Source: Pseudolabrys sp.
GTDB lineage: Bacteria; Pseudomonadota; Alphaproteobacteria; Rhizobiales; Xanthobacteraceae
Length of the DNA: 64,000 bases
Assembly: GCA_035315965.1 (NCBI GenBank)
Contig: DATFXJ010000062.1
Span: 5,007 to 69,006, forward strand
Direction: 5' to 3'
This document shows, in pieces, positions 24,773-41,893 of the stretch (position 1 is its first letter; each line of letters begins with the position of its first letter). A program made the translations under genes and the position numbers. The notes beneath the pieces were generated by a model. The model did not search any database. It was not told the origin of the DNA and saw nothing but the letters and a program-made list of their open reading frames with translations.

Positions 24773-24844
24773 GGCTCCTGTTCGGCGGACATTGCGGCGT
24801 TTCGTTCGCCCTTGCATAATACGAATGTCTCGGGAGGAACAACA

Positions 24845-26443
24845 ATGACGGTCGTGGAAGCGCGCGCGGCAAAATCGGTCACGCCCGAATCCATGGGCGC
24901 TGTCCCACGCGACTACAATTTTGCCGCCGATGTTCTAGAAAGTAATCTTGCCGCCGGACGTGCCAACAAATCGGCCTATATCGACGCGCGCGGCACACAT
25001 ACCTATGGCGAACTTGCCGACCGCGTGGCGCGTTTTGGTTCCGTGTTACGTGGGCTTGGAATTAAGCGCGAAGAGCGCGTGCTGCTGGCGCTGCTTGATA
25101 CCATCGATTGGCCTACTGCGTTTCTCGGCTGTTTGAAAGCAGGCTTCATCGCGGTGCCTGTAAACACGCTGCTCACAGAGGACGACTATCGCTTCATGTT
25201 GGCCGATAGTCGCGCGAAATGCTTGGTGGTCTCGGAGGCGCTGTTTCCGAAATTCGAGAAGCTCATCAAGCAAAGCCCAGATCTCGAGCACGTCATCGTG
25301 TCGGGCACCAGTCCGCACGGCTATCGTCTGTTCGAGGATGTGATCGGGTCCAACGACCCGGAATCTTATACGGCGCCGACCACCTGTGACGATATCGCAT
25401 TCTGGCTGTACACGTCGGGATCAACCGGAAAGCCGAAAGGCGCGGTACACGTCCATGCAAGTCTCAAGCTCACTGCCGATCTTTATGGCACGCCTGGCGT
25501 GGGCCTGAAGGAAAGCGACATGTGCTATTCGGTCGCGAAATTGTTTTTCGCCTACGGCCTCGGCAATGCCATGACCTTTCCAATGACCGTCGGTGCGACC
25601 ACTATACTTAACGCTGAAAGACCGACACCGGATGGCGTTGCGGCGTTATTGCGGAAACATCCGATCACAGTGTTTTTCGCTGTACCGACTTTTTATGCCG
25701 CGTTCCTAGCTAATCCGAACGCGCCGCAGAAATCGGAAGTGAAAATCCGCCGCTGCATTTCTGCCGGCGAGGCGTTGCCCGAAGAAATCGCGCGCAAGTG
25801 GAAGGATCGTTATGGCGTCGAAATTTCAGACGGGCTAGGCACGACGGAGATGCTTCACATCTATCTCACCAACGCGCCGGGCGCGACCAAATACGGCACG
25901 ACTGGGAAGCCGGTGCCGGGTTATGAGATCAAACTGATCGGTGATGACGGTCAGCCAGTGAGGAAAGGCGAAATGGGCGAACTTTATGTACGCGGGCCGA
26001 CCAGCGCAATCATGTACTGGAACAATCGCGACAAATCGCGCTCCACTTTCCAGGGCGAATGGACGCGCTCAGGCGACAAATATATCGAGGATGTCGAAGG
26101 CTATTACGTATGCTGTGGGCGGCAGGACGACATGCTGAAAGTATCGGGTATGTATGTCTCGCCGTTCGAGGTCGAGGCAGCGCTGTCATCGCATCCCGAC
26201 GTGCTAGAGGCGGCGGTGGTGGGCTGGCACGACGAGCAAAAATTGATCAAGCCGAAGGCCTTTGTGGTGCTCAAATCGCCGGACAGGGCCAGCGATGCCC
26301 TAGTCCAGGCGTTGCAGGAACACGTCAAAGCAAAGCTCGCGCCGTACAAATATCCGCGCTGGATCGAATTCCGCAAAGACTTGCCGAAAACCGCGACGGG
26401 CAAAATTCAGCGGTTCAAATTGAGGGCAGAGGGTAAACAGTAA
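24845..26443 (+). CDS. Benzoate-CoA ligase family aryl-CoA ligase
   Basis: YNFAADVL, YTSGSTGKPKG (A3), FAYGLGN, CISAGEAL, DGLGTTEMLHI and PKTATGKIQR (A10). Start ATG 24845 with GGAGG RBS. Confidence 0.9.
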   Translation: MTVVEARAAKSVTPESMGAVPRDYNFAADVLESNLAAGRANKSAYIDARGTHTYGELADRVARFGSVLRGLGIKREERVLLALLDTIDWPTAFLGCLKAGFIAVPVNTLLTEDDYRFMLADSRAKCLVVSEALFPKFEKLIKQSPDLEHVIVSGTSPHGYRLFEDVIGSNDPESYTAPTTCDDIAFWLYTSGSTGKPKGAVHVHASLKLTADLYGTPGVGLKESDMCYSVAKLFFAYGLGNAMTFPMTVGATTILNAERPTPDGVAALLRKHPITVFFAVPTFYAAFLANPNAPQKSEVKIRRCISAGEALPEEIARKWKDRYGVEISDGLGTTEMLHIYLTNAPGATKYGTTGKPVPGYEIKLIGDDGQPVRKGEMGELYVRGPTSAIMYWNNRDKSRSTFQGEWTRSGDKYIEDVEGYYVCCGRQDDMLKVSGMYVSPFEVEAALSSHPDVLEAAVVGWHDEQKLIKPKAFVVLKSPDRASDALVQALQEHVKAKLAPYKYPRWIEFRKDLPKTATGKIQRFKLRAEGKQ

Positions 26444-26490: not shown

Positions 26491-27300
26491 ATGACAAATC
26501 TTTCCGATTTCGGCTTTCTCATCATTGGCCCGCAACGTCTCGAGTACCGCTTCGTCGGCCCGCAGCCCGACAAAGCGCCGACGCTCGTTTTGCTGCATGA
26601 GGGTCTCGGTTGCGTCGGTTTGTGGGGCGATTTTCCGGACGAGCTTTCGGCTGCCACCGGCGCCGGCGTATTCGTTTATTCGCGCGCCGGTTATGGCCAA
26701 TCCAGCACCGTGACACTGCCGCGGCCGCTCTCATTTATGCACGATGAAGCGCGCGAGACGCTGCCCCGCTTGCTCGACGCCATTGGTTTTCAACGCGGCC
26801 TGCTGGTTGGTCATAGTGACGGCGCTTCGATTGCGGTGATCTATGCCGGCAGTCGTCAGGATCACCGCGTTAGCGGTCTCGTGCTGATCGCGCCGCATTT
26901 CTTTACCGAGGATTCGGGCATAGCCTCGATCGTCGAGGCGCAAAAAAACTACGAGACTAGCGACCTGCGTGCACGTCTTTCGCGTTGGCACGACGACGTC
27001 GACAATGCGTTCAGAGGCTGGAACGGGGCGTGGCTCGATCCAGAATTCCGCAAGTGGGATATCACGGAATTCCTTGCCTATATCCGGGTGCCGGTGTTGA
27101 TCGTGCAGGGCAACGATGACCAGTATGGCACGGTGAAGCAGATCGAGGTCGCACAGGAAGAATGCTACTGCCCGGTCGAGGTCACGCTATTGCCGAGCGC
27201 GCGCCATTCGCCGCAGCGGGAAGCACCTGAGGCGACGCTCAAGGCGATTTCGGAATTTGTAATTCGTGTGCTGCAGGCGAATGAAACGAGTGTGGCGTAA
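26491..27300 (+). CDS. Alpha/beta hydrolase of the type often found beside benzoate-CoA ligases
   Basis: LLHEGLG oxyanion region, GHSDG nucleophile elbow, DQYG acid and HSP His motifs. Confidence 0.88.
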   Translation: MTNLSDFGFLIIGPQRLEYRFVGPQPDKAPTLVLLHEGLGCVGLWGDFPDELSAATGAGVFVYSRAGYGQSSTVTLPRPLSFMHDEARETLPRLLDAIGFQRGLLVGHSDGASIAVIYAGSRQDHRVSGLVLIAPHFFTEDSGIASIVEAQKNYETSDLRARLSRWHDDVDNAFRGWNGAWLDPEFRKWDITEFLAYIRVPVLIVQGNDDQYGTVKQIEVAQEECYCPVEVTLLPSARHSPQREAPEATLKAISEFVIRVLQANETSVA

Positions 27301-27412: not shown

Positions 27413-28621
27413 TCACTCCGCTGCCTGTTTCGCCAAACTGCCGTGCGCGGAGACGAGATAATCCATCGCCGCCTGCACGCCACCTTTCTTGTGTGGCACA
27501 TTAGCGAGAGCCAGCGCTAGTTCGGTCGCTGCCAATCCACCCAGCAACATCGCGTCATTGATGTCACCGAGGTGACCTATGCGGAACATCTTGCCGGCGA
27601 AGCGGCCGAAGCTTGCGCCGTACGAAATATTGAACTGCTCGAGTGCCAGCGCGCGGAACGTATCGGCGTCATGTCCTTCGGGCATCAGGACGCCAGTGAT
27701 TGTCGGCGAATAATATTTCGGGTCGCGGCAGATGATGTCGAGGCCCCATGCCTTGATTGCACGGCGGGTCGCTTCCGCGAGCCGGTCGTGGCGGGCGAAC
27801 ACGTTGCCCAACCCCTCCTCATGCAGCATCTCGATGCCGGCAGCGAGGCCGTGCAGCATTTGAGTCGCCGGCGTGTAGGGGAAGAAACCCTGCTTGTTCA
27901 TCATCAACATTTCGTCCCAGGCCCAGAACGACTTGGTGAGTTTGGACGTCCTGTTTGCCGCCAGTGCCTTGTCGCTGACCGCGTTGAACGACATTCCAGG
28001 CGGCAGCATGAGACCTTTTTGCGCTCCGCCGATGGAAACGTCGACGCCCCATTCGTCATGCCGATAATCCGCTGAAGCCAGCGAGGAGATGGTATCCACC
28101 ATCAGCAGCGCGGGATGGCGAGCCTTGTCGATTGCCTTGCGGATTTCCGCCACCGGTGAAAGACATCCGGTCGACGTTTCATTGTGCAGGAAGCAGACCG
28201 CCTTGACCTCCTTGCGTTTATCCTCGCGCAGGCGCGCTTCGATCACTGCCGGGTCCGCGCCGATGCGCCAGTCAGTTGCAATGAATTCAAGAACGAGACC
28301 GAGATTCTCGGCCATTTTTTTCCAAAGCGTGGCGAATTGGCCCGTTTCCACCATCAGCACCTTGTCGCCGGGCGAGAGCGTATTAACGAGAGCGGCTTCC
28401 CAGGCGCCGGTTCCGGTCGCGGTGTAGATGATGACCGGATTCGTGGTCTTGAAGATGGTCTTGATGCCCTCCAGGCACTTCTTCGCAAGCCGCGCAAATT
28501 CCGGCCCGCGATGATCAATGATGGGCGTGTCCATTGCCCGAAGGATGCGGTCCGGGAGCGGTGTAGGCCCCGGAATGTGCAGAAAATGTCGCCCGACCGG
28601 ACGCGAGGAATTCTTAGCCAT
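27413..28621 (-). CDS. Class V aminotransferase, serine/alanine-glyoxylate aminotransferase-like
   Basis: HIPGPT, TGTGAWEAA, HNETSTG, VDTISS and GAQKGLM (PLP Lys). Confidence 0.9.
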   Translation of the reverse strand: MAKNSSRPVGRHFLHIPGPTPLPDRILRAMDTPIIDHRGPEFARLAKKCLEGIKTIFKTTNPVIIYTATGTGAWEAALVNTLSPGDKVLMVETGQFATLWKKMAENLGLVLEFIATDWRIGADPAVIEARLREDKRKEVKAVCFLHNETSTGCLSPVAEIRKAIDKARHPALLMVDTISSLASADYRHDEWGVDVSIGGAQKGLMLPPGMSFNAVSDKALAANRTSKLTKSFWAWDEMLMMNKQGFFPYTPATQMLHGLAAGIEMLHEEGLGNVFARHDRLAEATRRAIKAWGLDIICRDPKYYSPTITGVLMPEGHDADTFRALALEQFNISYGASFGRFAGKMFRIGHLGDINDAMLLGGLAATELALALANVPHKKGGVQAAMDYLVSAHGSLAKQAAE

Positions 28622-28805
28622 AGGCAGTCTGCTCCTGAACGGCAGCTTTTAAGGAAATTTCGTGGTTTGGCCACGGGCGCGTCCCAACTAGGAAGCGGCG
28701 CTTGTGGCGTTGAACTATGAATGCAACATTGCGGTCAAGCAGTTTTCCGTAGGACAAACTATCCCTGATGCATAGGCCTGGCGTAGCCCAAAAAGGATAA
28801 AAAAC

Positions 28806-31775
28806 GTGGCGGTACTCATGCCCGGTCTGGAACGTCGGCTGAAGGCCGAATTGACTGGCGAGGTTCAATTCGACCGGTTTACTCGCGGCCGCTATGCCAC
28901 CGATGCATCCCATTACCAGATCATGCCAATCGGGGTGGTCGCTCCACGCACCATTGAAGAAGCCGATCGGGCACTAGCCATCGCACGCAACGAAGGTGCA
29001 ACGGTTCTGGCGCGCGGCGGCGGCACGTCGCAGGCCGGGCAGGCCATTGGGAAATCGCTCGTCATCGACTGTTCAAAATATCTGACACGAATTCTCGATC
29101 TTGACGTCAAGCGTGCCCGTTGCACGGTCGAGCCTGGGATCGTGCTCGACGAACTCAACCGTCAACTCAAACCGCATGGATTGTGGTTTCCGGTCGATAT
29201 CTCGACCTCCTCGCGCGCGACGATAGGCGGCATGGCCGGCAACAATTCCTGCGGGGGTCGTTCGATGCGCTACGGGACCATGCGCGACAATGTGATCTCG
29301 ATCGAGGCGCTGCTCGCGGACGGCACGCTTGCGCATTTCGGTCGCATCGGCGGCAGTCTCAAGGATGTACCGGTGCCTTTGCGGCCACTGGCGAAAGATC
29401 TGCTCGCGATTGGTGCGCGAGAGGCTGATGAGATTGCCGAGCGCTTTCCCAAGGTTCAGCGACGTGTCGGCGGCTACAATCTCGACGCGCTCGTGCCAGG
29501 CAAAAACGATATCAACCTCGCGCATGTGCTGGTTGGTGGCGAAGGCACGCTCGCGTTTTCCACGCGCATCGAATTGAAGCTTGCGCCCTTGCTTGGCCGC
29601 CGCGCAGTGGGCGCTTGCCATTTCGGCAGCTTCTACGAGGCGATGAATTCGGCACAACATATTGTTCGCCTCAAGCCGATCGCCGTCGAGCTGATCGACC
29701 GCACGATGATCGAACTCGCACGTCAGATTTCGATTTTCCAGCCGACGCTGGAGAAATTCATCCGGGAGACTCCGGAAGCCATCCTCCTAGTCGAATTCGG
29801 CGAGGAGGACCACGAAATCAACCTGCGCATGTTGAAGCAGCTCAAGGATCTGATGGGCGATCTCGGATTTGGTTGGAACAAAAGCGGCGCCAAATGGGGT
29901 GGCGTTGTCGAAGTGCTCAACCCCGACTTGCAGGCCGCGATTACCGAGATGCGTACATCGGGCCTCAACATCATGATGTCGATGAAAGAGGAGGGGAAGC
30001 CTGTCTCCTTCGTTGAAGACTGCGCGGTTCCGCTCGAACATCTCGCCGATTACACGTCACGTCTCACCGAAATTTTCGAGAAGCACGGCACGCGTGGGAC
30101 CTGGTACGCGCATGCCGGTTCTGGCTGTCTGCATGTGCGCCCAATTCTCAATCTGCGACAGGAAAAAGACGTGTATGCCATGCGAGAGATCGCCGAAGAG
30201 GCGTTCGCGATGGTACGGGAATACAAGGGCTCACACTCCGGCGAGCATGGCGACGGGCTTGTGCGTTCGGAATTCAACGAGCCGATGTTCGGCGCGCGCC
30301 TCGCCCGCGCCTTCGAAGAGGTAAAGGACCGGTTCGACCCCAAGGCATTCTTCAATCCCGGCAAGATCGTACGGGCACCCAAATTCGATGATCGCAGCCT
30401 CTTTCGTTACACTCCCGACTATCACGGCGAGCCGCTCAAGACTCATCTGGATTGGTCTGCATATCCGGGAACTGGCGGCGGTCTTCAGGGCGCAGTCGAG
30501 ATGTGCAACAACAACGGTGCCTGCCGCAAATTGGCGGGCGGCGTAATGTGCCCGAGCTACCGCGTAACCCGGGACGAGCGCGACGTCACGCGCGGGCGCG
30601 CCAACACACTGCGGCTGGCGATTAGTGGGCAACTTGGCGCGGCCGCGCTTATCTCCGATGAAATGGCAGAGACGCTGAAGCTCTGCGTTTCCTGTAAGGC
30701 CTGCCGCCGCGAGTGCCCGACCGGCGTCGACATGGCGCGCATGAAAGTCGAGGTGCTGGCTGCGCGGGCCGCGAAGTTCGAACTTTCACTGCACGACAAA
30801 TTAGTCGGTTTTTTGCCGCACTATGCGCCTTATGCTTCGAAGTGGCATCACTTCTTCAATATGCCGACTCGCAGCGCGCTCTTGCGTAAAGCTTTGCAGG
30901 TCGTTGCTGGTTTTTCCTCCAACCGCACCCTGCCACAGTGGCGCAAGGACATTTATCATGACCGCTCCGATTGGCGTTACACAACACGGGAAGAAAATGC
31001 GCGGGCGCGAGAAGTGGTGCTCTTCGCCGATACATTCAACCGCTATTTTGAGCGAGAAAATCTGGATGATGCATTGAGCGTTCTGGTCGCCGGCGGATAT
31101 CGCGTCTACGCCTCGCTGCCGACCAATCCCAATGATCGGCCATTGTGCTGCGGCCGCACCTTCCTCGCTGTTGGGCTGGTCGATGAAGCGCGGCACGAAA
31201 TGCAGCGCACATTGGATGTGCTTGCACCGTACGTAATGCGCGGATTGCCGGTCATCGGCCTTGAACCGAGCTGCCTCTTCACGTTCCGCGACGAATTGCC
31301 AGCCTTACTCAAAGGCGAGGTGGTGGATGCGCTTGCGGCAAACGCCCTGCTGTTCGAGGAATTTTTAGCCCGAGAGCAGAAGGACGGCCAACTCAAGTTG
31401 TCGCTCGGGCCGTTACCAAAGAAAGCGCTACTTCACGGGCATTGCCATCAGAAGGCATTCGACACCATGGGCGTCGTTGAGAGCGCACTCCGATTGATCC
31501 CGCAGCTTTCGGTCGAAACGGTAGAATCGAGCTGCTGCGGCATGGCGGGTAGCTTCGGCTATCACACCACGACAATCGACGTTTCACGGAAAATGGGCGA
31601 ACTATCATTGCTGCCTGCGGTCCGCAGGGCTGCCGCCGATACATTAATCGTTGCCGACGGCACTTCGTGCCGCCACCAGATTTACGACGGCACAGAACGG
31701 GAAGCTGCCCACGTCGCGCGCGTATTGGCGATGAGTGTGGCGGCTGGCTCAACGAAAGCTGTGCAGCCATACTAG
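28806..31775 (+). CDS. FAD-linked oxidase with 4Fe-4S and CCG domains (GlcD/GlcF fusion, 2-hydroxyacid dehydrogenase-like)
   Basis: RGGGTSQAGQ, GEHGDG, CNNNGAC, CVSCKACRRECP, CCGRT and CCGMAGSFG motifs. Confidence 0.9.
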   Translation: MAVLMPGLERRLKAELTGEVQFDRFTRGRYATDASHYQIMPIGVVAPRTIEEADRALAIARNEGATVLARGGGTSQAGQAIGKSLVIDCSKYLTRILDLDVKRARCTVEPGIVLDELNRQLKPHGLWFPVDISTSSRATIGGMAGNNSCGGRSMRYGTMRDNVISIEALLADGTLAHFGRIGGSLKDVPVPLRPLAKDLLAIGAREADEIAERFPKVQRRVGGYNLDALVPGKNDINLAHVLVGGEGTLAFSTRIELKLAPLLGRRAVGACHFGSFYEAMNSAQHIVRLKPIAVELIDRTMIELARQISIFQPTLEKFIRETPEAILLVEFGEEDHEINLRMLKQLKDLMGDLGFGWNKSGAKWGGVVEVLNPDLQAAITEMRTSGLNIMMSMKEEGKPVSFVEDCAVPLEHLADYTSRLTEIFEKHGTRGTWYAHAGSGCLHVRPILNLRQEKDVYAMREIAEEAFAMVREYKGSHSGEHGDGLVRSEFNEPMFGARLARAFEEVKDRFDPKAFFNPGKIVRAPKFDDRSLFRYTPDYHGEPLKTHLDWSAYPGTGGGLQGAVEMCNNNGACRKLAGGVMCPSYRVTRDERDVTRGRANTLRLAISGQLGAAALISDEMAETLKLCVSCKACRRECPTGVDMARMKVEVLAARAAKFELSLHDKLVGFLPHYAPYASKWHHFFNMPTRSALLRKALQVVAGFSSNRTLPQWRKDIYHDRSDWRYTTREENARAREVVLFADTFNRYFERENLDDALSVLVAGGYRVYASLPTNPNDRPLCCGRTFLAVGLVDEARHEMQRTLDVLAPYVMRGLPVIGLEPSCLFTFRDELPALLKGEVVDALAANALLFEEFLAREQKDGQLKLSLGPLPKKALLHGHCHQKAFDTMGVVESALRLIPQLSVETVESSCCGMAGSFGYHTTTIDVSRKMGELSLLPAVRRAAADTLIVADGTSCRHQIYDGTEREAAHVARVLAMSVAAGSTKAVQPY

Positions 31776-31779
31776 GTTT

Positions 31780-32811
31780 ATGGCCAAACTTTTACCCACC
31801 TCTCTCGTTGGATCCTATGCTCAGCCGGAGTGGCTGATCGATCGCGTGAAGCTTGCAAGCCGCTTTCCGCCGCGCGTGCGCGCCAGGGAGCTTTGGCGTA
31901 TTGCCCCGGATTACCTGAAGCAGGCGCAGGACGACGCGACCTTGCTTGCGATCCGCGATCAGGAGCGGGCTGGACTCGACATCATCACCGACGGCGAGAT
32001 GCGACGCGAAAGCTATTCCAATCGTTTCGCTACGGCGCTCGATGGCGTCGACATCGAAAATCCCGGCAGCGCACTCGACCGCTCAGGCCATCCCAATCCA
32101 GTGCCTCGCGTAGTCGGCAGGGTCAGCCGCCGGCATCCAGTTGAGGTGGATGATGTAAAATTTCTACGCGCCAATACCGATCGTATGATCAAGATGACAG
32201 TACCTGGGCCGTTCACGATGTCGCAGCAGGCGCAGAACGATTTCTACAAAGACGAAGAGGAGATGGCCCTGGACTATGCCAGAGCAGTGAACGCGGAAAT
32301 CAAGGACCTGTTCGTAGCTGGCGCCGATATCGTGCAAATTGATGAGCCCTACATGCAAGCGCGGCCGGAAAAGGCACGCCTATATGGCCTCAAGGCACTT
32401 AATGCCGCGCTTAAAGGAGTTAGCGGGCCAACCGCGGTCCATCTCTGTTTCGGCTATGCTGCTATCATTCATGCGCGCCCAAAAGGATATTCGTTCCTGC
32501 CGGAGTTGGCCGGATCGCCGGTCGAGCAAGTTTCGATCGAAACCGCGCAGTCCAATCTCGACTGCACTGTACTCGAGAAGTTGTCGGGAAAGACTATTAT
32601 TCTTGGTACCCTTGATCTTTCTGATATGACGATCGAGAAGCCCGAGACGGTGGCCGCACGTATCCGCCGCGCCTTGCCTCACGTAGCGGCCGACCGGATT
32701 ATCGTTGCGCCCGATTGTGGTCTAAAATATCTGCCGCGAGAGGTCGCTTACGGAAAGATGTGCGCCATGGTCGAAGGTGCGAAGATAGTGCGCGCCGAAT
32801 TGACCAAATAA
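31780..32811 (+). CDS. Single-barrel MetE-like Zn enzyme (tandem copy A)
   Basis: PTSLVGSY, TDGEMRRES, QIDEP, HLCFGY and APDCG. Start ATG 31780, 4 nt after the oxidase stop. Confidence 0.87.
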   Translation: MAKLLPTSLVGSYAQPEWLIDRVKLASRFPPRVRARELWRIAPDYLKQAQDDATLLAIRDQERAGLDIITDGEMRRESYSNRFATALDGVDIENPGSALDRSGHPNPVPRVVGRVSRRHPVEVDDVKFLRANTDRMIKMTVPGPFTMSQQAQNDFYKDEEEMALDYARAVNAEIKDLFVAGADIVQIDEPYMQARPEKARLYGLKALNAALKGVSGPTAVHLCFGYAAIIHARPKGYSFLPELAGSPVEQVSIETAQSNLDCTVLEKLSGKTIILGTLDLSDMTIEKPETVAARIRRALPHVAADRIIVAPDCGLKYLPREVAYGKMCAMVEGAKIVRAELTK

Positions 32812-32813
32812 CG

Positions 32814-33848
32814 ATGCCGGCCAAGTTGTTTCCTACTTCTCTCGTGGGCTCCTATCCGCAACCGGATTGGCTCATCGACCGCGCACGTTTGTCAAAGATG
32901 GTGCCACGTGTGCGGATGGATGATCTTTGGTTGATCGATCCAAAGGAGCTCGAGGAAAAACAGGACGAGGCAACGCTTCTTGCGATTCGCGAACAGGAAC
33001 GCGCCGGACTCGACATCATCACCGATGGCGAACAGCGACGCGAAAGCTACTCCAATCGTTTTGCCACCGCGCTCGAGGGCATCGACACCGCCAACCCCGG
33101 CTCGACCCTCAATCGTAGCGGCAAGCCGATTCCGGTTCCGCGAGTAACGGGCAAGATTCGCCGCAAGCATCCTGTGGAACTGCGCGACCTGCAATTTCTT
33201 CGCGCCAATACGAAAAGGCCGGTGAAGATCACAGTGCCCGGACCTTTCACGATGTCCAAACAGGCACAGAATGAATTATACAAGTCGGACGAGTCTATGG
33301 CTCTTGATTACGCTGCTGCAGTGAATGACGAGATTAAGGATCTGTTCGTGGCCGGCGCCGATGTTGTACAAATCGACGAGCCGTGGATGCAGCAACATCC
33401 GGAAAAAGCGCGTGAGTATGGACTAAAAGCACTCGATCGCGCGCTTGATGGCGTGACCGGCACCGTCGCGGTGCATCTGTGCTTTGGTTATGCTGCCATT
33501 GTGCATGAAAAGCCAGCCGGTTACTCGTTCCTGGCCGAACTGGAGACTTCGAAGGCCACGCAGATCTCTATCGAGGCCGCGCAGCCGAAGCTCGATCTTG
33601 GCGTTCTGAAAAAGTTGCCGTCAAAAACCATCATTCTCGGCGTCATCGATTTGTTAGACATGAACATAGAAACGCCTGAAACAGTAGCAGCGCGTATCCG
33701 CATGGCATTGCCACATGTGCCCGCCGAACGCATTGTGATTGCGCCCGATTGTGGGATGAAGTATCTGCCCCGCGACGTGGCATTCGGCAAAATGCAAGCT
33801 ATGGTGCGGGGTGCGTCGATCGTGCGTCTCGAGCAATCGGACGATTAG
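32814..33848 (+). CDS. Single-barrel MetE-like Zn enzyme (tandem copy B)
   Basis: PTSLVGSY, TDGEQRRES, QIDEP, HLCFGY and APDCG. Start ATG 32814, 2 nt after copy A. Confidence 0.87.
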   Translation: MPAKLFPTSLVGSYPQPDWLIDRARLSKMVPRVRMDDLWLIDPKELEEKQDEATLLAIREQERAGLDIITDGEQRRESYSNRFATALEGIDTANPGSTLNRSGKPIPVPRVTGKIRRKHPVELRDLQFLRANTKRPVKITVPGPFTMSKQAQNELYKSDESMALDYAAAVNDEIKDLFVAGADVVQIDEPWMQQHPEKAREYGLKALDRALDGVTGTVAVHLCFGYAAIVHEKPAGYSFLAELETSKATQISIEAAQPKLDLGVLKKLPSKTIILGVIDLLDMNIETPETVAARIRMALPHVPAERIVIAPDCGMKYLPRDVAFGKMQAMVRGASIVRLEQSDD

Positions 33849-33955
33849 GCTGCCAGCGGCTTGAACTTGGGCCCAATACCCGCAAAATGGGGCCAATAAC
33901 AACGACAGCACGGGCCATTTCCAGGAACCGTGAAAATCACACTAGGGAGGAAGCA

Positions 33956-34945
33956 ATGAAGAATTTTGTTGTTGGCGGCGCGACCATTGCGGCGATTGCA
34001 TTGGCAAATGCGCCGGCGATGGCGTGGGAGCCGTCCAAGCCGGTTGAAATCGTGGTAGCGGCCGGTGCTGGCGGCGCTTCCGATCAGATGGCACGCATGA
34101 TTCAGGCTGCCATCCAGAAGCACAGCCTGATGAAGCAACCGATGGTGGTGTCGCTCAAGGGAGGTGCCTCCGGCGCTGAAGCGCTGATGTACATGAAGTC
34201 GAGCGACGGTGATCCCAACAAGGTGCTCATTGCCTATTCATTGATCTACATGTTGCCGCTGTCGGCCAAGATTCCATTCAACTGGCGCGAGCTCACGCCA
34301 GTGTCGGTAATCGCGATGGACCAGTTCGTCCTGTGGGATAACACGACGCTGCCCTACAAGAACGTCAAGGAGTTCATCGAAGCGGCGAAGGCCTCGCCGC
34401 AGCCGTTCAAGATGGGCGGCACCGGCTCCAAGCGCGAAGACCACATCCTGACCGTGTTCATGGAGAAAAAGACCGGCGCGAAGTTCGCCTATCTCCCGTA
34501 CAAGTCGGGGGGCGAGGCCGCGACGCAGTTAGTCGGCAATCACACCGCCTCCAACGTCAATAATCCGTCGGAAAATCTTGAAGTGTGGCGTGCTGGTCAG
34601 GTCCGGGCACTGTGCGTCTTCGACAAGGAACGCATTTCGTACAAGACCAAGATCACAGATACGCAATCGTGGAATGACATCCCGACTTGCAAGGAAGAAG
34701 GGCTCGACGTGCAATATTTGATGCTGCGCGCCATGTTCCTCCCGGGGAAAGTTACACCTGAACAGACTGCCTTCTACGTTGACCTGTTCAAGAAACTTTC
34801 GGAGACGCCTGAATACAAGGACTACATGGAAAAGCAGGCGCTCAAGCCGATCTTCCTGGCCGGCAAGGACATGGTCAATTTCCTTGAGGAAGACGACAAG
34901 CTGAACTCGAGCCTGATGCACGAAGCCGGCTTCGTCGCGCAGTAA
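33956..34945 (+). CDS. tctC: TTT substrate-binding protein TctC
   Basis: Signal peptide, KPVEIVVAAGAGGASD and PYKSGGEA motifs. GGGAGG RBS before ATG 33956. Confidence 0.88.
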   Translation: MKNFVVGGATIAAIALANAPAMAWEPSKPVEIVVAAGAGGASDQMARMIQAAIQKHSLMKQPMVVSLKGGASGAEALMYMKSSDGDPNKVLIAYSLIYMLPLSAKIPFNWRELTPVSVIAMDQFVLWDNTTLPYKNVKEFIEAAKASPQPFKMGGTGSKREDHILTVFMEKKTGAKFAYLPYKSGGEAATQLVGNHTASNVNNPSENLEVWRAGQVRALCVFDKERISYKTKITDTQSWNDIPTCKEEGLDVQYLMLRAMFLPGKVTPEQTAFYVDLFKKLSETPEYKDYMEKQALKPIFLAGKDMVNFLEEDDKLNSSLMHEAGFVAQ

Positions 34946-34954
34946 AAAACAACG

Positions 34955-35055
34955 GTCATTCCGGGCCGGCACACCGTGCCGCACCCGGAATCCAGATGCA
35001 GGCACGGCGTGTGGCTCTGGATTCCGGGTTCGTTTCTTGCGCGCCGCGGACCGAC
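34955..35055. repeat. REP-like palindromic element, family B
   Basis: GTCATTCCGGG...CACCCGGAATCCAGA...TCTGGATTCCGGGT...GAC; lies between tctC and tctB. Confidence 0.8.
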
Positions 35056-35068
35056 AGACAGGTAAGCG

Positions 35069-35608
35069 ATGCCCTCCGATACCGAAATCGTCGTTGAAGA
35101 TCCGGACGCACCGGTCGCAGAGTCGCCTGCGGTCACGGGAGTGCGCACGATCGAAACCGTGGTCTATCTGCTGCTTGCAGCCCTGGCGTTGCTGTTGGCT
35201 TTCGACAACTGGCGCACTGGCATGGGATGGGCCGCGGACGGTCCACAGGCCGGATATTTCCCCTTCTACCTGTCTGTCATTTTGGCTGCCGCCAGCATCT
35301 ATGGTCTGGTCTCGATTTTCTTGAGCCGGATGGATGAAGGCAGAATATTCGTCACCCGCGACCAGCTTCGCCGGGTAATGCAGGTATTCGTTCCAACATT
35401 ACTGTTCTGTCTATGCACCCAGTGGCTCGGGCTTTATGTCGCCAGCTTCCTGCTGATTGCCGGTTTTATGTGGATAGTCGGGCGCCTCGCACTATGGAAA
35501 TCGCTGCTGACCAGCTTTTTATTCTCGATGGCCATGTTCATTACGTTCGATATCGCCTTTGACGTGATCATGCCGAAGGGGCCGATCGAAGCGATGTTTG
35601 GATACTAG
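35069..35608 (+). CDS. tctB: TTT small membrane subunit TctB
   Basis: Four TM segments, GPQAGYFPFY motif, position between tctC and tctA. Confidence 0.85.
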   Translation: MPSDTEIVVEDPDAPVAESPAVTGVRTIETVVYLLLAALALLLAFDNWRTGMGWAADGPQAGYFPFYLSVILAAASIYGLVSIFLSRMDEGRIFVTRDQLRRVMQVFVPTLLFCLCTQWLGLYVASFLLIAGFMWIVGRLALWKSLLTSFLFSMAMFITFDIAFDVIMPKGPIEAMFGY

Positions 35609-35612
35609 ACGC

Positions 35613-37130
35613 ATGGAAGCTTTTACTCTGCTTGTTCACGGCTTCGCGGTCCTGCTGACCTGGAAAACGCTTGCCTTGATGATGGTTGGGCTGGTGCTCG
35701 GTATCTTCGTAGGCGTACTGCCGGGCTTGGGTGGGCCGAATGGCGTCGCGATCCTGCTGCCGCTCACGTTCACAATGGACCCGACTTCGGCGATCGTAAT
35801 GCTGTCTTGTATCTATTGGGGCGCACTGTTCGGCGGCGCCATCACTTCTATTTTGTTCAATATTCCCGGCGAGGCCTGGTCCGTGGCGACGACGTTCGAC
35901 GGCTATCCGATGGCCCAGCAGGGACGAGCGGCGGAAGCTCTCACTGCCGCCTTTACGTCTTCATTTATCGGCTCGCTGTTCGCGGTGCTTCTCATTACCT
36001 TTTTGGCGCCCGGCATTGCCTCATTCGCGCTGCGGTTCGGGCCACCTGAATTCTTTGCGGTCTATTTGCTCACCTTCTGCTCGTTCGTAGGCTTGGGCCG
36101 CGAGGCCAAGCACAAAACGATCATTTCGATGGCGCTCGGCCTGCTGCTCGCCGGCGTCGGAATGGATACCGTATCAGGTCAACTGCGCATGACCTTCGGC
36201 TTCAGCGATTTGTTGCGCGGCATCAACTTCCTGGTTGCGGTCATCGGTTTGTTCGGTATCAGCGAAATCCTGCTCACCATGGAGGAGCGGCTGGCGCTTC
36301 GTGGCCATACAGCGCGCATCAGCCTGCGCGTGCTGTGGAATGTGTGGAAGGATCTGCCCCGCTACTGGATAACGCTACTGCGGTCTTCGGCAATCGGCGC
36401 CTGGCTTGGTATCACGCCTGGCGGTGCGATCGCGGCCTCGTTCATGGGCTACAACCTCGCCAAGCGTTTCTCAAGGAACCCGGAAGATTTTGGCTACGGG
36501 CGCATAGAAGGGGTATTCGCGCCGGAAACCGCGGCGCATGCATCGGGCACCGCTGCCCTGCTGCCGATGCTGGCGCTGGGAATTCCCGGTTCGGGTACGG
36601 CCGCCATACTCCTCGGCGGGCTGATGGTCTGGGGTCTCAATCCCGGACCGCTGCTGTTCGTTGAGCACAAGGATTTCGTCTGGGGTCTGATCGCCTCGAT
36701 GTATCTCGGCAATATCGTCGGACTGGTCATGGTACTCACCACCGTGCCGGCATTCGCCGCGGTGCTCCGCGTGCCATTCGCTGCGATCGCGCCGATGATC
36801 GTAGTGTCCTGCGCGATCGGCGCCTACGCCATTCAAAATGCCATGTTCGACATCTGGCTCATGCTGTTATTCGGCGTGGTTGGCTATGTGTTCAAAAAGA
36901 TCGAGATTCCTCTGGCGCCATTCACCCTCGCGCTCGTACTGGGCAGCCGGGCGGAAGACGCTTTTCGCCTGGCGATGATCGGCGCCGGCGGCGATCTGCG
37001 CGTATTCTGGTCGAACGGCCTTGTCGGCTCGATCACTTCGCTGGCGTTTATCCTGCTGTTCTGGCCTCTGATCGGGAAACTCGTTGGGCGCATCGGCGAG
37101 CTTGTGCAGTTGCGCAAGCCGATAACCTGA
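35613..37130 (+). CDS. tctA: TTT large membrane subunit TctA
   Basis: GVLPGLGG, NIPGE, TTFDGYPM and ALGIPGS motifs. Start ATG 35613. Confidence 0.92.
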   Translation: MEAFTLLVHGFAVLLTWKTLALMMVGLVLGIFVGVLPGLGGPNGVAILLPLTFTMDPTSAIVMLSCIYWGALFGGAITSILFNIPGEAWSVATTFDGYPMAQQGRAAEALTAAFTSSFIGSLFAVLLITFLAPGIASFALRFGPPEFFAVYLLTFCSFVGLGREAKHKTIISMALGLLLAGVGMDTVSGQLRMTFGFSDLLRGINFLVAVIGLFGISEILLTMEERLALRGHTARISLRVLWNVWKDLPRYWITLLRSSAIGAWLGITPGGAIAASFMGYNLAKRFSRNPEDFGYGRIEGVFAPETAAHASGTAALLPMLALGIPGSGTAAILLGGLMVWGLNPGPLLFVEHKDFVWGLIASMYLGNIVGLVMVLTTVPAFAAVLRVPFAAIAPMIVVSCAIGAYAIQNAMFDIWLMLLFGVVGYVFKKIEIPLAPFTLALVLGSRAEDAFRLAMIGAGGDLRVFWSNGLVGSITSLAFILLFWPLIGKLVGRIGELVQLRKPIT

Positions 37131-37140: not shown

Positions 37141-40100
37141 CTATTGCGCCGGTCCGGGTTCGACGGCGCGGCTGCGGCGTGTCGCCGCCGTCTTTTGCAC
37201 GGCTGGTATCGCCAGGCGCGCAAAGGTCGGGATCACAAGCAGGCTGCATATCGGCGACAGCAGCATGCCGCCGACAATGACGCAGGCAAGCGGTTGTTGC
37301 ACCTGCGAACCGATGCCGGTTGATATCGCCGCCGGTACGAGACCGATACATGCGGAAAGACCGGTCATGAAAATCTGTCGCATGCGGGTTTGCGCCGCAT
37401 TAATGATGGCCTCTTCCTTGCCGAGCCCCTCGTCCAGCCGGCGACGTATGTATGAGACCAGCAGGATGCCATCCATAGCCGAAACTCCAAACAGCGAGAT
37501 AAATCCGACAGCGGCCGACACACTGGCGTTCAAGCCGAAAAAGTATAGTCCGAGAATTCCGCCGCACGCCGCGAATGGAATGCCGGCCAGAGCCAATAGG
37601 CTGTCGCGCACCGAATTGAACAGGCTGTAGAGCAGCATCAAGATAAGCAACAGGCTCAACGGGATGATGATTGCGAGGCGTTTCTTGGCTTCAACCAAGG
37701 CGCCGAATTCCCCAGACCATTCCAGCGAATACCCATCCTTGAGATCGACGTTTTTTTTGATGCGCGCCTGCGCTTCGGCTACCGTGGAGCCGAGATCACG
37801 GCCGCGCACACTATATTTGATCGGTACAAAGCGTTGGGTGTTCTGTCGGTAGATATAGGCGGCTCCGGTCTCGAGCCGCACCTTGGCGACGTCGCCGAGC
37901 GCAATATAAACAGTCGGCGATTTCGGATCGGAGTTTGGCAAAGCCACAGGCACCGAACGGATAGCATCGATATTGTCACGGTACTGCGGCGCCAGCCGTA
38001 CCGTGAAGGGGAAGTTCATTTCGCCCTCGAAGACTCGAGTTGCTTCCTGGCCGCCGATCGCTGCGTGCACCACCGTGTTCATGTCGTTAACGGTGATGCC
38101 GTAACGCGCGGCCTTGGCGCGATCCGCTTCGATCACCAGGTTGGGCTGGCCAAGCAGATTGAACGCGCCCGGATCGTTGACACCCGGTACTTTCGCCAGT
38201 TCCGCCTTGACCGCCTTCGACAGTCGCTCGAGCTCGGCCAGGTCGGGGCCGAATATCTTGACGGAGTTTTCACCCTTAACGCCGGAAACCGCTTCCTCGA
38301 TATTATCCTGAATGTATTGCGAAAAATTGAGGTCGAGGCCGATAAACTCGTTCCCGAGTCTCTCGGACAGCTCCTTCACCAGTTTCGGTTTGGTGAGGCC
38401 ATTTGGCCATTCCTCGAAAGGCCTGAGCGGCACAAAGAATTCCGCAACGAAGGAGCCATCAGGGTCAGTTGCATCTTCGCCGCGCCCTTGCTCGGACACT
38501 ACTGTCTTGACCGGGGGATAGCTGGCGATCACCTGACGAATCTTGTCAACGGTCTCGCGTCCGGCATCCAGCGTGATCGTGGGGGGAAGCAGGGCGCGGA
38601 TCCAGAGATTGCCTTCTTCCAGTTTTGGAAGAAATTCGGTGCCGAGCCGCATGCCAAGCGTGCCACAGATCACTAGGAAAGCGACTGCGATCATCGCGGC
38701 CAGCCGCGCGTTGCGCACCGCGAGGACCAGCAAACGCTGATAGACACTGCGGATGCCGCGCACGAGAATCGTCTCTACCTCATTGACCTTATCCGGCAAC
38801 AGTAGCGACGCCATCACTGGCGTCACCGTGAACGTCGCGAACACCGCACCGAGCAGCGCATAGGCATAAGTGCGCGACATTGGACCGAAGATCTGTCCTT
38901 CGACGCCCTGCATCGTGAAAAGTGGAAGGAAGGCGGCGATTGTAATAATCACCGAGAAGAAGATCGCCTTGTCCACTTCGACGGCGGCGGCAAGGATCCG
39001 TTGCAGTTTTTCTGCGAGCCTGCTCTCGCGGTCGGCGAACGCGCGATGCGTATGATGGGCGAGATGGCGGAAAATGTTCTCCACCATGATCACGGTACCG
39101 TCGACGATGATACCAAGGTCGATCGCGCCGACCGACAGTAGATTGGCGGAATCTCCTCGCAGCACCGTGATTATAACGGCCGTAAACAGGGCCACCGGGA
39201 TAGTCGCGGACACGATCAGCGCACAGCGCAAATTGCCAAGAAAAATCCACTGAATAAGAAATATAAGGACGATGCCAAACAGCATATTGTGCAATACCGT
39301 CCGCACCGTGATGCCAACCAGATCTCCGCGATCATAGAATGGTTCGATCCTGACGCCGTGTGGCAGGCTGCCGTCGCTATTAATACGCGCGATCGCTGCT
39401 CGCACGCGCGTGACCACGTCCATCGTGCGCTCGAGCTTTTGCATCAGGACAATGCCGAATATGATGTCGTCCTGATCGTCGCGGCCAGCAATGCCAAGGC
39501 GCGGTGTGAATCCGATCTGATTACGTGACACATCCTTCAATACGACTGGCAATCCGCCCTGTTGGCTCAGGACGATATTGTCGATATCGGTCAGCGAGCC
39601 GAGCGTACCCACACCGCGAATATTCACCGACTGCTCGCCTAACGCGATTGTGCGGCCGCCGACATTGGCGTTGTTCGTTGAGATAGCATTGATGATCTGG
39701 GGCAATGTGAGGCCAAAGGCCCGCATGCGGTCGAGATCAATCTCTGCTTGATATTCCTTGGTTTTACCGCCTAATACCACAACATCGGCCACACCCGGCA
39801 CGATGCGCAATTTTCGCTCGACCACCCAGTCCTGGATGGTCTTGAGCTGGATCAGGTCCATCCCGGATGGACCCTTAAGCTGATAGCGCAGAATCTCACT
39901 GATGCCGCCGGCGGGAGAAATCACCGGAGTTACCGCCGTTGGCAGCGTCGCATCTTTCAGCCGGTTGGTGACCTGCTGACGCACAAAGTTATAGTCGCGG
40001 CCGTACTCAAATTGCAGGCGAATGAACCCAAGGGCGAACACCGTGTTTGAACGGATGTAGGTAAGTCCCGGCGTGCTCGCGACTGCGATCTCAAGCGGGA

Positions 40101-40299
40101 TGGTGACGTAACGTTCAACTTCCTCGGGCGACTGGCCGGGATATTGGGCGATGATCTCAATAATCGGCGGCGCCGGGTCGGGGTAGGCCTCGACATTGAG
40201 CGTCCTAAATGCCGCGTAACCGGCGGCGATAAACATCACAAAGCCGACCAGCGCTAGCGGTCGCCGTGACAGACCGAACGAAATCAGACCACGCAACAT
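37141..40299 (-). CDS. Heavy-metal efflux RND permease, CzcA-type
   Basis: EAYPD N-terminal motif, TM4 DLGIIVDGTVIMVEN (acidic pattern of divalent-cation HME pumps), FLPKLEEG and QQPLA motifs; 1052 aa. Confidence 0.92.
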   Translation of the reverse strand: MLRGLISFGLSRRPLALVGFVMFIAAGYAAFRTLNVEAYPDPAPPIIEIIAQYPGQSPEEVERYVTIPLEIAVASTPGLTYIRSNTVFALGFIRLQFEYGRDYNFVRQQVTNRLKDATLPTAVTPVISPAGGISEILRYQLKGPSGMDLIQLKTIQDWVVERKLRIVPGVADVVVLGGKTKEYQAEIDLDRMRAFGLTLPQIINAISTNNANVGGRTIALGEQSVNIRGVGTLGSLTDIDNIVLSQQGGLPVVLKDVSRNQIGFTPRLGIAGRDDQDDIIFGIVLMQKLERTMDVVTRVRAAIARINSDGSLPHGVRIEPFYDRGDLVGITVRTVLHNMLFGIVLIFLIQWIFLGNLRCALIVSATIPVALFTAVIITVLRGDSANLLSVGAIDLGIIVDGTVIMVENIFRHLAHHTHRAFADRESRLAEKLQRILAAAVEVDKAIFFSVIITIAAFLPLFTMQGVEGQIFGPMSRTYAYALLGAVFATFTVTPVMASLLLPDKVNEVETILVRGIRSVYQRLLVLAVRNARLAAMIAVAFLVICGTLGMRLGTEFLPKLEEGNLWIRALLPPTITLDAGRETVDKIRQVIASYPPVKTVVSEQGRGEDATDPDGSFVAEFFVPLRPFEEWPNGLTKPKLVKELSERLGNEFIGLDLNFSQYIQDNIEEAVSGVKGENSVKIFGPDLAELERLSKAVKAELAKVPGVNDPGAFNLLGQPNLVIEADRAKAARYGITVNDMNTVVHAAIGGQEATRVFEGEMNFPFTVRLAPQYRDNIDAIRSVPVALPNSDPKSPTVYIALGDVAKVRLETGAAYIYRQNTQRFVPIKYSVRGRDLGSTVAEAQARIKKNVDLKDGYSLEWSGEFGALVEAKKRLAIIIPLSLLLILMLLYSLFNSVRDSLLALAGIPFAACGGILGLYFFGLNASVSAAVGFISLFGVSAMDGILLVSYIRRRLDEGLGKEEAIINAAQTRMRQIFMTGLSACIGLVPAAISTGIGSQVQQPLACVIVGGMLLSPICSLLVIPTFARLAIPAVQKTAATRRSRAVEPGPAQ

Positions 40300-40306
40300 G
40301 GATAGA

Positions 40307-41584
40307 TCAGCTTCCGGCGGCGGCGCGATCGACGAACAGGCTACCCTTGCTCACGACGCTTTCACCGCGATGCAAGCCCTCGATGATTTCGATCATCTGT
40401 CCATTGGAAAGTCCGGTCTTGACGTCGCGACGTTCGACCGATTGGTCTTCGCGAGCAAGCCAGACATGAGCAGTCTTGCCGTCGTAGATGATTGCCTCGC
40501 GTGGCACCGCGAGTGAGCTGTCTCCTTCGCCGGTAAGAATGGTAACGTTCGCAAACATTTCAGGCCGCAGGAGCTGCTGCGAATTGTCAATTGTCGCGCG
40601 CACCAGCAGCCGGCGTGTCCCTGTATCGAGCGAAGTCGCGACATACGAGATGTTCGCGGGGAACACCCGATTAGGATAGGCAAGAACGGTGAAGTGCACT
40701 GCTTGCCCGACTTTAACGTTTGGCGCTTCAGATTCGCGGACATAAGCCACGAGCCAAACCGTGGACAGATCGCCGATGATGAAAGACGGATCACTGGCAC
40801 TCGTATTTTGCGAAGACGTGTTGATATATTGACCAGGGCCTACCTTGCGCTGGATCACCGTGCCGGCGATCGGCGCATAAATAGTCATGTGCGAACTTAC
40901 CGCGCCAGTATCGCTGAATTTTGTTATATCATCGTCGGTCATGCCGAGAATGCGCAGGCGGTTCCGCGCCGCTTCGAGTAACGTCTGGGCCGCGCGCACA
41001 TCATTATCAGCTGCGCGGGTGGTCGCCTGCGCCTGCTGCAGGTCACGTAACGATCCGGCGCGAGAGTCAAACAGCGTCTTGTTCTGCTGCTCGACAATCT
41101 TGGCAAGCTCAAGTGCCGATCGAGCTTTGTTCAATGCGGAAATAGCGTTGATGAAATCGTTTTGCGCCTGCACCATATCCGGCGCTTCGACGATGAAAAG
41201 CGGCTGCCCCGCTTTCACAGCGTCGCCGGGCTTGGCGAGCAGCTTGATTACTCGACCGGAGTAGGGCGAGAACACAAGCGTAGAGCGGTCTTCGTCGACC
41301 GCTATCTTGCCTTCGGTCATGTGTTCGGACCGAAACACGACTTCACTGACCGGCGCCATGGTCAGCGCTTCCCATTGTTTCGGTGTGGGATAGTAGAGCG
41401 CGCCAACGCGACGACCTTGAGCCGTGGCTTCTTGCTGGCCGTCTGCGCTGGGAGCGCGTGTATTCGCGGCCACCGCAAGCCAGGTACAAACGATTAATAC
41501 GACCGCAGCGATCACGCCGTTGCGGGCATTGATCACCGGTTGCAACTTGAGCTGCCCTACGATCGACCCGACAATACGATCCAA
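40307..41584 (-). CDS. RND efflux membrane fusion protein (CzcB/CusB-like)
   Basis: SPYSGRV, APIAGTVIQRKV and LRPEMFA motifs. Probable TTG start at 41584 behind an AGGGGA RBS. Confidence 0.88.
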   Translation of the reverse strand: MDRIVGSIVGQLKLQPVINARNGVIAAVVLIVCTWLAVAANTRAPSADGQQEATAQGRRVGALYYPTPKQWEALTMAPVSEVVFRSEHMTEGKIAVDEDRSTLVFSPYSGRVIKLLAKPGDAVKAGQPLFIVEAPDMVQAQNDFINAISALNKARSALELAKIVEQQNKTLFDSRAGSLRDLQQAQATTRAADNDVRAAQTLLEAARNRLRILGMTDDDITKFSDTGAVSSHMTIYAPIAGTVIQRKVGPGQYINTSSQNTSASDPSFIIGDLSTVWLVAYVRESEAPNVKVGQAVHFTVLAYPNRVFPANISYVATSLDTGTRRLLVRATIDNSQQLLRPEMFANVTILTGEGDSSLAVPREAIIYDGKTAHVWLAREDQSVERRDVKTGLSNGQMIEIIEGLHRGESVVSKGSLFVDRAAAGS

Positions 41585-41893
41585 GGCTTCCCCTTTCGAT
41601 AATCCTCCCAAATAATCAGCCTTATACCTCAGGCAACTGACAGCGGTGTTACCGCGGCATAAACATTTCAAGCCGTCGAAAGAACCCGTGGAAAATTGGT
41701 CAACGCCGGTTCGACCCGAAAGCCAGCGCCGTCGCTAGGTATCTGATCCTACAATCCCTTGTTAAGAATCATTTGCAACTGGAATTTTCGTGGATATGGT
41801 TGCTATTGGAATGCCGTCATACAGGCAAACAACTCGCCGGGGCATAAGCTGACCATCGCAGCAAAGAATATCGAGTGTTTGTAGCTTCATCCG

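Follow-up and report, generated by a model that had tools for sequence, protein, structure and literature searches.

Two paralogous MetE-fold zinc proteins of Pseudolabrys sp.: members of a widespread orphan family with a likely catabolic role

The Pseudolabrys locus

The 64,000-nucleotide stretch of Pseudolabrys sp. DNA analyzed here (“the window”; contig DATFXJ010000062.1 of assembly GCA_035315965.1) contains two adjacent genes, A (31780-32811, + strand, 343 amino acids) and B (32814-33848, + strand, 344 amino acids), whose products are paralogous, single-barrel zinc proteins of the MetE fold. By sequence, A and B appear to belong to a widespread and well-defined, yet uncharacterized, orphan family related to the methionine synthase MesD, and the genomic context of the family makes a catabolic role likely. 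The two genes are preceded by OX (28806-31775, + strand), which encodes a 989-residue FAD/Fe-S fusion protein (FAD_binding_4, FAD-oxidase_C and Fer4_8/17 in Pfam). They are followed by the genes of a tripartite tricarboxylate transporter (TTT), namely tctC for the periplasmic binding protein (33953-34945, + strand, PF03401), tctB for the small membrane subunit (35069-35608, + strand, PF07331) and tctA for the large one (35598-37130, + strand, PF01970, 497 bits), the listed TTG start of which overlaps the end of tctB. All six genes thus lie on the + strand; A starts 4 nt after OX and B 2 nt after A, and a longer gap of 104 nt separates B from tctC. Divergent from OX is AT (27413-28621, - strand, PF00266 or Aminotran_5), a class-V aminotransferase of the serine-glyoxylate/aspartate-glyoxylate type. 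The 184-nt spacer between AT and OX (28622-28805) is presumed to be a promoter/operator region, and a scan of it against Rfam matched no family. Coordinates and Pfam matches bear out this layout as it had been described in the original prediction, which was made from the DNA letters and their open reading frames.

A consensus scan located a terminator-like GC hairpin with a T-rich tail after tctA (37174-37188, + strand); it is the sole strong hairpin of this kind on the + strand, with none comparable between OX and tctA. It is plausible that 28806-37130 (OX-A-B-tctCBA) constitutes one transcription unit, of which the hairpin is the probable end. The arrangement is not due to chance: at least 14 related contigs show the same gene order. 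A gene for a 1052-residue RND-type efflux pump and an upstream open reading frame of 454 codons (37141-41671, - strand) converge on the end of tctA and are probably unrelated to the operon.

OX consists of a GlcD-like FAD domain fused to a GlcF/GlpC-like Fe-S (CCG) domain. Its flavin domain is nearest to the structures of D-lactate dehydrogenase and glycolate oxidase, and its NCBIfam scores are 530 bits to YdiJ (cut-off 1350) and 175 bits to GlpC. It is presumably a YdiJ-like, quinone-linked dehydrogenase of D-2-hydroxy acids or glycolate. AT reaches 449 bits against the BhcA model (cut-off 650), and among solved structures it is nearest to a serine-glyoxylate aminotransferase (6PK1, 357 bits). 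Together, OX and AT would most likely convert a D-2-hydroxy acid or glycolate to a 2-oxo acid and then to an amino acid. Of the 301 alphaproteobacterial genomes sampled, 49 have a full-length orthologue of OX, with 54-61% identity. An AT orthologue (57-68% identical) adjoins OX, mostly divergently and in many families, in 17 of 29 alphaproteobacterial OX loci (L101-L129); no homolog of A or B was found in the 1.5-kb flanks of those AT-OX loci. Because the pair recurs without A and B, AT and OX form a self-standing module that is conserved across the Alphaproteobacteria and independent of them.

A or B follows OX in 14 of the 82 A-type loci whose neighbors were tabulated, and only in a Pseudolabrys/Rhodoplanes-type lineage. 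Within that lineage the OX-A or OX-B junction is stable across several genera (OX 71-89% identical); in some relatives a CN-hydrolase, an MFS transporter, a class II aldolase or TctC is inserted between OX and A, which offers no consistent clue. The link of AT and OX to A and B may amount to co-regulation only, and a metabolic link, such as the transamination of methionine formed by A or B, is possible. The original prediction had treated coupling to the oxidase as a defining property of the pair, a view that these counts do not sustain, and the tandem with its neighbors, the conservation of which it had made a condition, is not conserved outside one lineage. The operon is better described as a lineage-specific fusion of the AT-OX pair with A and B (in Pseudolabrys/Rhodoplanes) and, in this genome, with the TTT importer.

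The TTT genes are present in this genome and in four close relatives, where tctC orthologues 81-94% identical follow A or A and B (L019, L020, L021, L027). A convergent TRAP system takes their place in other relatives, among them a genome of the same genus, and Rhodoplanes has neither. The solved structures nearest to the TctC of the window are uncharacterized TctC proteins and terephthalate binders (66-84 bits); these matches, and those of the LivJ-type binding proteins discussed below, are too distant to name a ligand. Uptake proteins do recur beside family members, as TctC, TRAP, MFS, LivJ-type binding proteins or TonB receptors. Because relatives of A and B repeatedly adjoin organic-acid uptake proteins in this way, an imported carboxylate is a reasonable substrate class. 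This part of the original prediction stands, but the TTT importer to which it had been attached is replaced or missing elsewhere.

Ahead of AT in the window lie three further genes. The first encodes a third MetE-like protein of 407 residues (23594-24817, - strand, PF01717), with its zinc and homocysteine motifs intact; the second, divergent from it, is of the benzoate-CoA ligase family (24845-26443, + strand, TIGR02262, 769 bits against a cut-off of 375). An alpha/beta hydrolase gene (26491-27300, + strand), whose product has weak similarity to PcaD-like enol-lactonases, follows 3' of the ligase, in a synteny kept in relatives. The 407-residue protein, encoded 7 kb upstream of A and B, is 40% identical to a MetE-like protein of about 380 residues that accompanies A-type proteins elsewhere and is translationally coupled to their genes in Sphingomonadales and Hyphococcus. 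The synteny of its gene with AT-OX is likewise kept in relatives, and it may act in the same pathway as A and B.

Fold, active site and distribution of the A/B family

In Pfam, A and B match Meth_synt_2 (PF01717) as one barrel only, with 114.8 and 123.1 bits, respectively, against a cut-off of 21; the N-terminal folate barrel is missing, as had been predicted. The best NCBIfam match of both is NF006589 (PRK09121), at 260.5 bits for A and 246.7 bits for B, and A- and B-type proteins of other phyla reach 247-283 bits. This is the model for MesD: the solved MesD of Shewanella (PDB 3RPD) scores 703 bits against it. With an equivalog cut-off of 392 and no adjoining MesX, membership of A and B in the MesD family was rejected. 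An identity as MetE was rejected as well, since A and B have a single barrel and reach 93-99 bits against the full-length MetE model (TIGR01371, cut-off 930), to which the C-terminal half alone aligns. 3RPD is nonetheless the nearest solved structure by sequence (205 bits, E = 2e-59), with identities of 37.5% for A and 34.9% for B. It is also the nearest fold to an AlphaFold2 model of A (pLDDT 87.9), with a TM-score of 0.91 and a root-mean-square deviation of 2.0 Å; the TM-scores were about 0.78 for MetE C-terminal barrels, 0.60 for an MtaA-like methyltransferase and 0.55 for uroporphyrinogen decarboxylase. A match to URO-D (PF01208) was found for B only, at 30.8 bits and with partial coverage. 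Given the low TM-score, this partial match and the presence of a zinc site, uroporphyrinogen decarboxylase was discarded as an identity.

Price et al. 2021 (PMC7857596) named three homocysteine-binding and four zinc-binding residues for MesD. In our alignment of 81 A-type and 21 B-type sequences, the corresponding homocysteine residues (S12, E73 and D188) and zinc residues (H221, C223, E254 and C313) are 100% conserved, and the latter align with the ligands in 3RPD. In A they fall in the motifs GSY, DGEM, QIDEPYMQAR, HLCFGY, SIETAQ and APDCG; B has DGEQ and QIDEPWMQQH. All of the motifs quoted in the original prediction, including its distinctions between the paralogs (GEM and GEQ; EPYMQAR and EPWMQQH), are thus present. 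From the fold match and these seven invariant residues, A and B have the architecture and active site of zinc-dependent thiol alkyltransferases, with a homocysteine-like amino acid as the predicted ligand. Sixty-seven residues are invariant across the A/B family yet different in MesD, and many of them flank catalytic residues (Y13, R75-R82, M192-Q193, A256-Q257, D312 and K316-Y317). This is the pattern expected if the second substrate differs from that of MesD.

A and B share 71% identity (241 of 339 residues), near the two-thirds once estimated by eye. In a maximum-likelihood tree of 105 sequences with SH-aLRT support values, the B-types group together (support 99) as the sister of a clade of all A-types (support 98) from four phyla; the duplication was therefore old, or B diverged fast. 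We surveyed 121 genomes of the same taxonomic family, calling A-types at 81% identity or above. A-types occur in about 14 and B-types in about 12, and many genomes have other paralogs at 57-74% identity. Approximately 10 genomes carry an A-type only, 8 a B-type only and 4 both, with the tandem in 2 of those 4; about 10 related contigs also have the tandem. In another genome of the genus (L135, L136), the series of 407-residue MetE-like gene, CoA ligase, hydrolase, AT and OX ends in B alone, with A on another contig, and in Rhodoplanes A stands alone after OX. Since some genomes have only one of the two, A and B are unlikely to form an obligate heterodimer or an obligate two-step pair and appear to be separate enzymes rather than subunits of one. 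The two clades differ at thirteen positions that are at least 90% conserved in each. When these were located by sequence distance, six proved to be at most seven residues from a catalytic residue (191 Y/W, 194 A/Q, 195 R/H, 222 I/L, 255 T/A and 258 S/P). This clustering near the catalytic residues along the chain suggests that A and B differ in specificity.

A-type orthologues retain 75-91% identity in four phyla. They are carried by Xanthobacteraceae, Rhizobiaceae, Sphingomonadales, Roseomonas, Hyphomonadaceae, Achromobacter and Pigmentiphaga, as well as by Acidobacteriota, Ilumatobacteraceae and other Acidimicrobiia, and SAR324; Sphingomonas aquatica, Neorhizobium galegae, Pigmentiphaga litoralis and Achromobacter spanius are among the cultured carriers. 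The tree does not match taxonomy, which suggests horizontal spread under strong constraint. Soil and peat metagenomes hold thousands of near-identical matches to the family. A search against representatives at 50% identity yielded mostly fragments and few full-length outgroups. Five contigs labeled “Betaproteobacteria bacterium” or “Rhizobium sp. Q54” (L024, L025, L027, L029 and L033) have A, OX, AT and TctC 80-86% identical to the Pseudolabrys-type proteins and in the same order, and their taxon labels or bins appear doubtful.

The 3-Mb genome that holds the window has about 10 Meth_synt_2 paralogs, and Rhodoplanes sp. Z2-YC6860 has 22 Meth_synt_2-like matches. In the latter, five MetE-like paralogs of 370-400 residues form a tandem array (G436:C1:8041000-8050200; L145 1004-10242), interleaved with and flanked by genes for LivJ-type (Peripla_BP_6) binding proteins and with no corrinoid or folate genes among them. 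A patchy distribution, many paralogs and a MetH already in place together give the profile of what appears to be a substrate-diversified accessory family. Public records assign its members to a “methionine synthase” or a “uroporphyrinogen decarboxylase” family, and both labels are probably wrong as to physiological role.

Genomic context and possible function

Among the 82 A-type loci, the most frequent neighbors are a family III CoA-transferase paired with a citryl-CoA-lyase-like protein of the citrate-synthase fold (29 loci), seen in Alphaproteobacteria and Actinomycetota (e.g., L045 7787-9977 and L099 2751-4790); the short “citryl-CoA lyase” matches NF004868 above its cut-off. There follow an IclR regulator (27), a VOC-fold protein (23), the divergent MetE-like protein of about 380 residues, whose gene often overlaps the stop codon of A (23), the NAD(P)H:quinone oxidoreductase WrbA (19), a TonB-dependent receptor (19), an alpha/beta hydrolase (17), an FAA hydrolase (7) and an Amidohydrolase_2 protein (6). 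Ring-cleavage enzymes are represented by intradiol dioxygenases (5), gentisate 1,2-dioxygenases (4) and LigAB-type extradiol dioxygenases (LigB; 3, two of them with an RraA-type aldolase). These genes assemble into recurring sets that span Alpha- and Betaproteobacteria, Acidobacteriota and Actinomycetota: hydroxyquinol-type dioxygenases; gentisate dioxygenase with FAA hydrolase and MFS transporter; LigAB with RraA-type aldolase and hydrolase; and WrbA with VOC protein or hydrolase, TonB receptor, IclR regulator and the CoA-transferase/lyase pair. Solitary B-type genes show a similar association. At five loci they lie 24-25 nt 5' of a hydroxyquinol-1,2-dioxygenase-like (intradiol) gene, behind two genes for LivJ-type binding proteins. 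The dioxygenases beside A- and B-types score 209-276 bits to structures of PnpC and of hydroxyquinol/chlorohydroxyquinol dioxygenases, compared with about 110 bits to catechol 1,2-dioxygenases. From this context we infer that A and B act on imported aromatics or organic acids just before ring cleavage.

Two A-type loci have features of their own. In Sphingomonas aquatica (L099 8662-9987), a single fusion protein of 441 residues, encoded directly 5' of the A-type gene, combines the VOC protein and the alpha/beta hydrolase that other clusters encode separately. In an Acidobacteriota contig (L146 10001-12477 and 14267-19804), a gene of the pyridine-nucleotide disulfide oxidoreductase family (Pyr_redox_2 and Pyr_redox_dim) comes 53 nt after the A-type gene, and an AT-MFS-OX-like operon lies 3 kb beyond this pair.

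We tentatively propose that A and B are stand-alone zinc/thiol alkyltransferases serving as O-demethylases, independent of folate and corrinoid, that methylate homocysteine before aromatic ring cleavage. A zinc-activated thiol, most likely that of L-homocysteine, would take the methyl group from a methoxylated aromatic: the thiolate would attack the methyl of the aryl methyl ether, yielding a phenol and methionine, with no requirement for folate, corrinoid or oxygen. Candidate donors would be a methoxy-hydroquinone, a methoxy-benzoate or a syringate-type compound, and the diol or triol thus freed would pass to hydroxyquinol, gentisate or LigAB-type dioxygenases. The two enzymes would have different substrates or remove different methoxy groups. 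We arrived at this proposal because a single redox-neutral, cofactor-free step suits the gentisate, LigAB/gallate and hydroxyquinol contexts as well as a zinc-thiolate enzyme. WrbA would fit if methoxy-benzoquinones are first reduced to methoxy-hydroquinones, and the presence of two different MetE-like genes per operon would fit if dimethoxy compounds are used. The paralogue arrays would also be in keeping with demethylation, as they resemble those of the methyltransferase-I enzymes of anaerobic O-demethylases. That the methyl group goes specifically to homocysteine is a more tentative element of the proposal. Somewhat doubtful is its broadest form, in which the A- and B-types would open a fourth mechanistic class of aryl O-demethylases, passing the methyl groups of lignin-derived methoxy-aromatics and methoxy-hydroquinones directly to homocysteine with no use of folate, corrinoid, oxygen or reductant.

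Several considerations weigh against O-demethylation. Aryl methyl ethers that are not activated donate methyl groups poorly to a zinc thiolate, and the known anaerobic O-demethylases need Co(I). Stoichiometric methylation of homocysteine would call for the recycling of methionine, though no route for it is visible in the clusters. No ring-cleavage dioxygenase lies near A and B within the window, and about one third of the A-type loci lack an informative neighbor, many of the contigs being short. The TTT, TRAP and LivJ-type proteins suggest acids, whereas the precursors of hydroxyquinol may be neutral. Further, the retained OX-A/OX-B junction may reflect a real metabolic link that demethylation leaves unexplained. 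Finally, our literature searches found no biochemical or genetic work on any family member, no characterized member, no study of the A/B clade and no O-demethylase of the MetE fold. DmtS of Novosphingobium was considered as a precedent for the last and set aside, as it is VanA-like.

The same catabolic context would be compatible with chemistry other than methyl transfer, though we regard this as rather unlikely. The zinc thiolate could add to an electrophile (an epoxide, a quinone or a maleyl-type double bond), as in epoxyalkane:coenzyme M transferase or the thiol-dependent isomerases. Alternatively, the substrate could be decarboxylated non-oxidatively or hydrolyzed, its own carboxylate or amino group being held by the “homocysteine” residues. 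The WrbA quinone reductase would accord with such chemistry, as would the disulfide-reductase-family gene straight after the Acidobacteriota A-type, which recalls the pairing of XecA with 2-KPCC. Decarboxylation would fit uptake proteins that suggest acids together with dioxygenases of the hydroxyquinol type, and NCBI does label some members as uroporphyrinogen decarboxylase family. However, the fold is far nearer to MetE/MesD than to that enzyme (TM-scores of 0.91 and 0.55), and an invariant Cys2-His-Glu zinc site with three homocysteine residues is unexpected in a decarboxylase; decarboxylation was ranked lower for these reasons. As to addition, no context of coenzyme M biosynthesis was seen among the neighbors, and no single electrophile suits the gentisate, LigAB and hydroxyquinol contexts together, whereas demethylation suits each.

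A further reading, which we consider improbable, is that A and B simply make methionine. They could be folate-independent, MesD-like synthases that back up MetH without B12, with OX in place of MesX to supply or regenerate the methyl donor. MesD is their nearest characterized and solved relative, they retain all of its zinc and homocysteine residues, OX lies 4 nt from A at a junction kept in related genera, and the recognized synthase of this genome is the B12-dependent MetH. A and B have the single barrel, the lack of Meth_synt_1 and the Ser/Glu/Asp residues of core methionine synthases. The function of core-MetE homologs in aerobic bacteria has been described as unknown (PMC12478193); a Phaeobacter “Mes-like” mutant retained the DMSP-induced shortening of lag phase in the sole test reported for it (PMC12366255). 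However, a role in supplying methionine in vivo is improbable, judging from distribution, riboswitches and the presence of MetH. The latter is full length in the genome of the window (1755 bits) and occurs in all 16 isolate genomes with an A-type gene (17 of 17 carrier genomes checked), four of which have a separate MetE gene as well. An Rfam scan of the window and seven related loci detected no SAM or cobalamin riboswitch. MesX (DUF1852, PF08908) was not found in the genome, a weak negative given that the search had no positive control, and it is absent from the Pfam-annotated neighbors of family members in 13 loci. These facts, with MesD scores below the equivalog cut-off and a patchy, multi-copy distribution, lead us to infer that A and B are accessory catabolic enzymes and not housekeeping methionine synthases. 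It speaks further against the latter that OX is tied to them in one lineage only, being elsewhere with AT alone, and that their neighbors elsewhere are ring-cleavage and uptake genes. The original prediction was right to deny that they are ordinary synthases and to see no characterized member among their kin. It had, however, gone on to a heterodimer, or two obligate consecutive thiol-transfer steps on a carboxylate imported by TctCBA, with OX and AT processing the product. The 2- and 4-nt gaps suggest translational coupling, the tandem recurs, and the clade-specific differences sit beside catalytic motifs. Nevertheless, we consider such a pair very improbable: genomes with A or B only outnumber those with both, B or A can stand alone after OX (in the same-genus genome and Rhodoplanes, respectively), TTT is exchanged or lost in sister genomes, and AT-OX is conserved without either protein. 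The one Acidobacteriota locus with an A-type 3 kb from an AT-MFS-OX-like operon is a single co-location that lies within chance over about 60 loci.

O-demethylation is rate-limiting in microbial lignin conversion. If A and B do perform it with a thiol, the turnover of lignin methoxyl groups in aerobic soil bacteria would be tied directly to the supply of methionine and one-carbon units, and so cofactor-free a step would matter to carbon-cycle models and to engineering. Such an activity would also bear on which methyl donors the MesD-type synthases use. If they do not, the family is still a large orphan group that is easy to test and whose genomic context is clear, one that is unusually conserved across Proteobacteria, Acidobacteriota and Actinomycetota and very common in soil and peat metagenomes.

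Relation to known systems

The associated proteins have ready counterparts. OX shares the FAD and CCG-type Fe-S architecture of YdiJ, the Fe-S D-lactate dehydrogenases and GlcDEF, and AT is similar over its full length to serine-glyoxylate aminotransferase and BhcA; both differ from YdiJ and BhcA in scoring below the equivalog cut-offs. The closest counterpart of A and B themselves is MesD (ACIAD3523; 3RPD; NF006589; PMC7857596), likewise a single Meth_synt_2 barrel of about 340 residues, with the same zinc ligands and the same Ser/Glu/Asp residues for homocysteine. A and B are set apart from it by their lower scores, by the lack of an adjoining MesX and by neighbors that are catabolic rather than methionine genes. 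With the C-terminal barrel of MetE they have the fold and the zinc/homocysteine site in common, but they lack the N-terminal folate-binding barrel.

XecA (epoxyalkane:coenzyme M transferase, EaCoMT) is a zinc enzyme of the MetE fold that functions in catabolism, where it alkylates a thiol with a donor other than methyl-folate; its pairing with 2-KPCC is known from epoxide metabolism. Compared by description only, it is the known system that A and B most resemble in general character, and it offers a precedent for the recruitment of this fold to catabolism. It differs, on the same descriptive basis, in that A and B keep the residues expected for homocysteine and not for coenzyme M. No alkene or epoxide genes were found among the annotated neighbors of A/B family loci.

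Of the known aerobic O-demethylases, LigM and DesA depend on folate, and the others are of the Rieske or P450 type (PMC8091115). The folds of LigM, VanA and P450 are unrelated to that of A and B, and the A/B clusters contain no corrinoid protein, folate enzyme or reductase partner; the methyl acceptor of A and B would be a thiol. By analogy, however, A and B would occupy the same place in metabolism as the aryl O-demethylases (LigM/DesA, the corrinoid-dependent methyltransferase I (MT-I) enzymes, VanAB and P450), namely a peripheral reaction by which a diol is made available for ring cleavage. Their arrays of paralogs adjoining uptake proteins would likewise find a parallel in the corrinoid MT-I enzymes.

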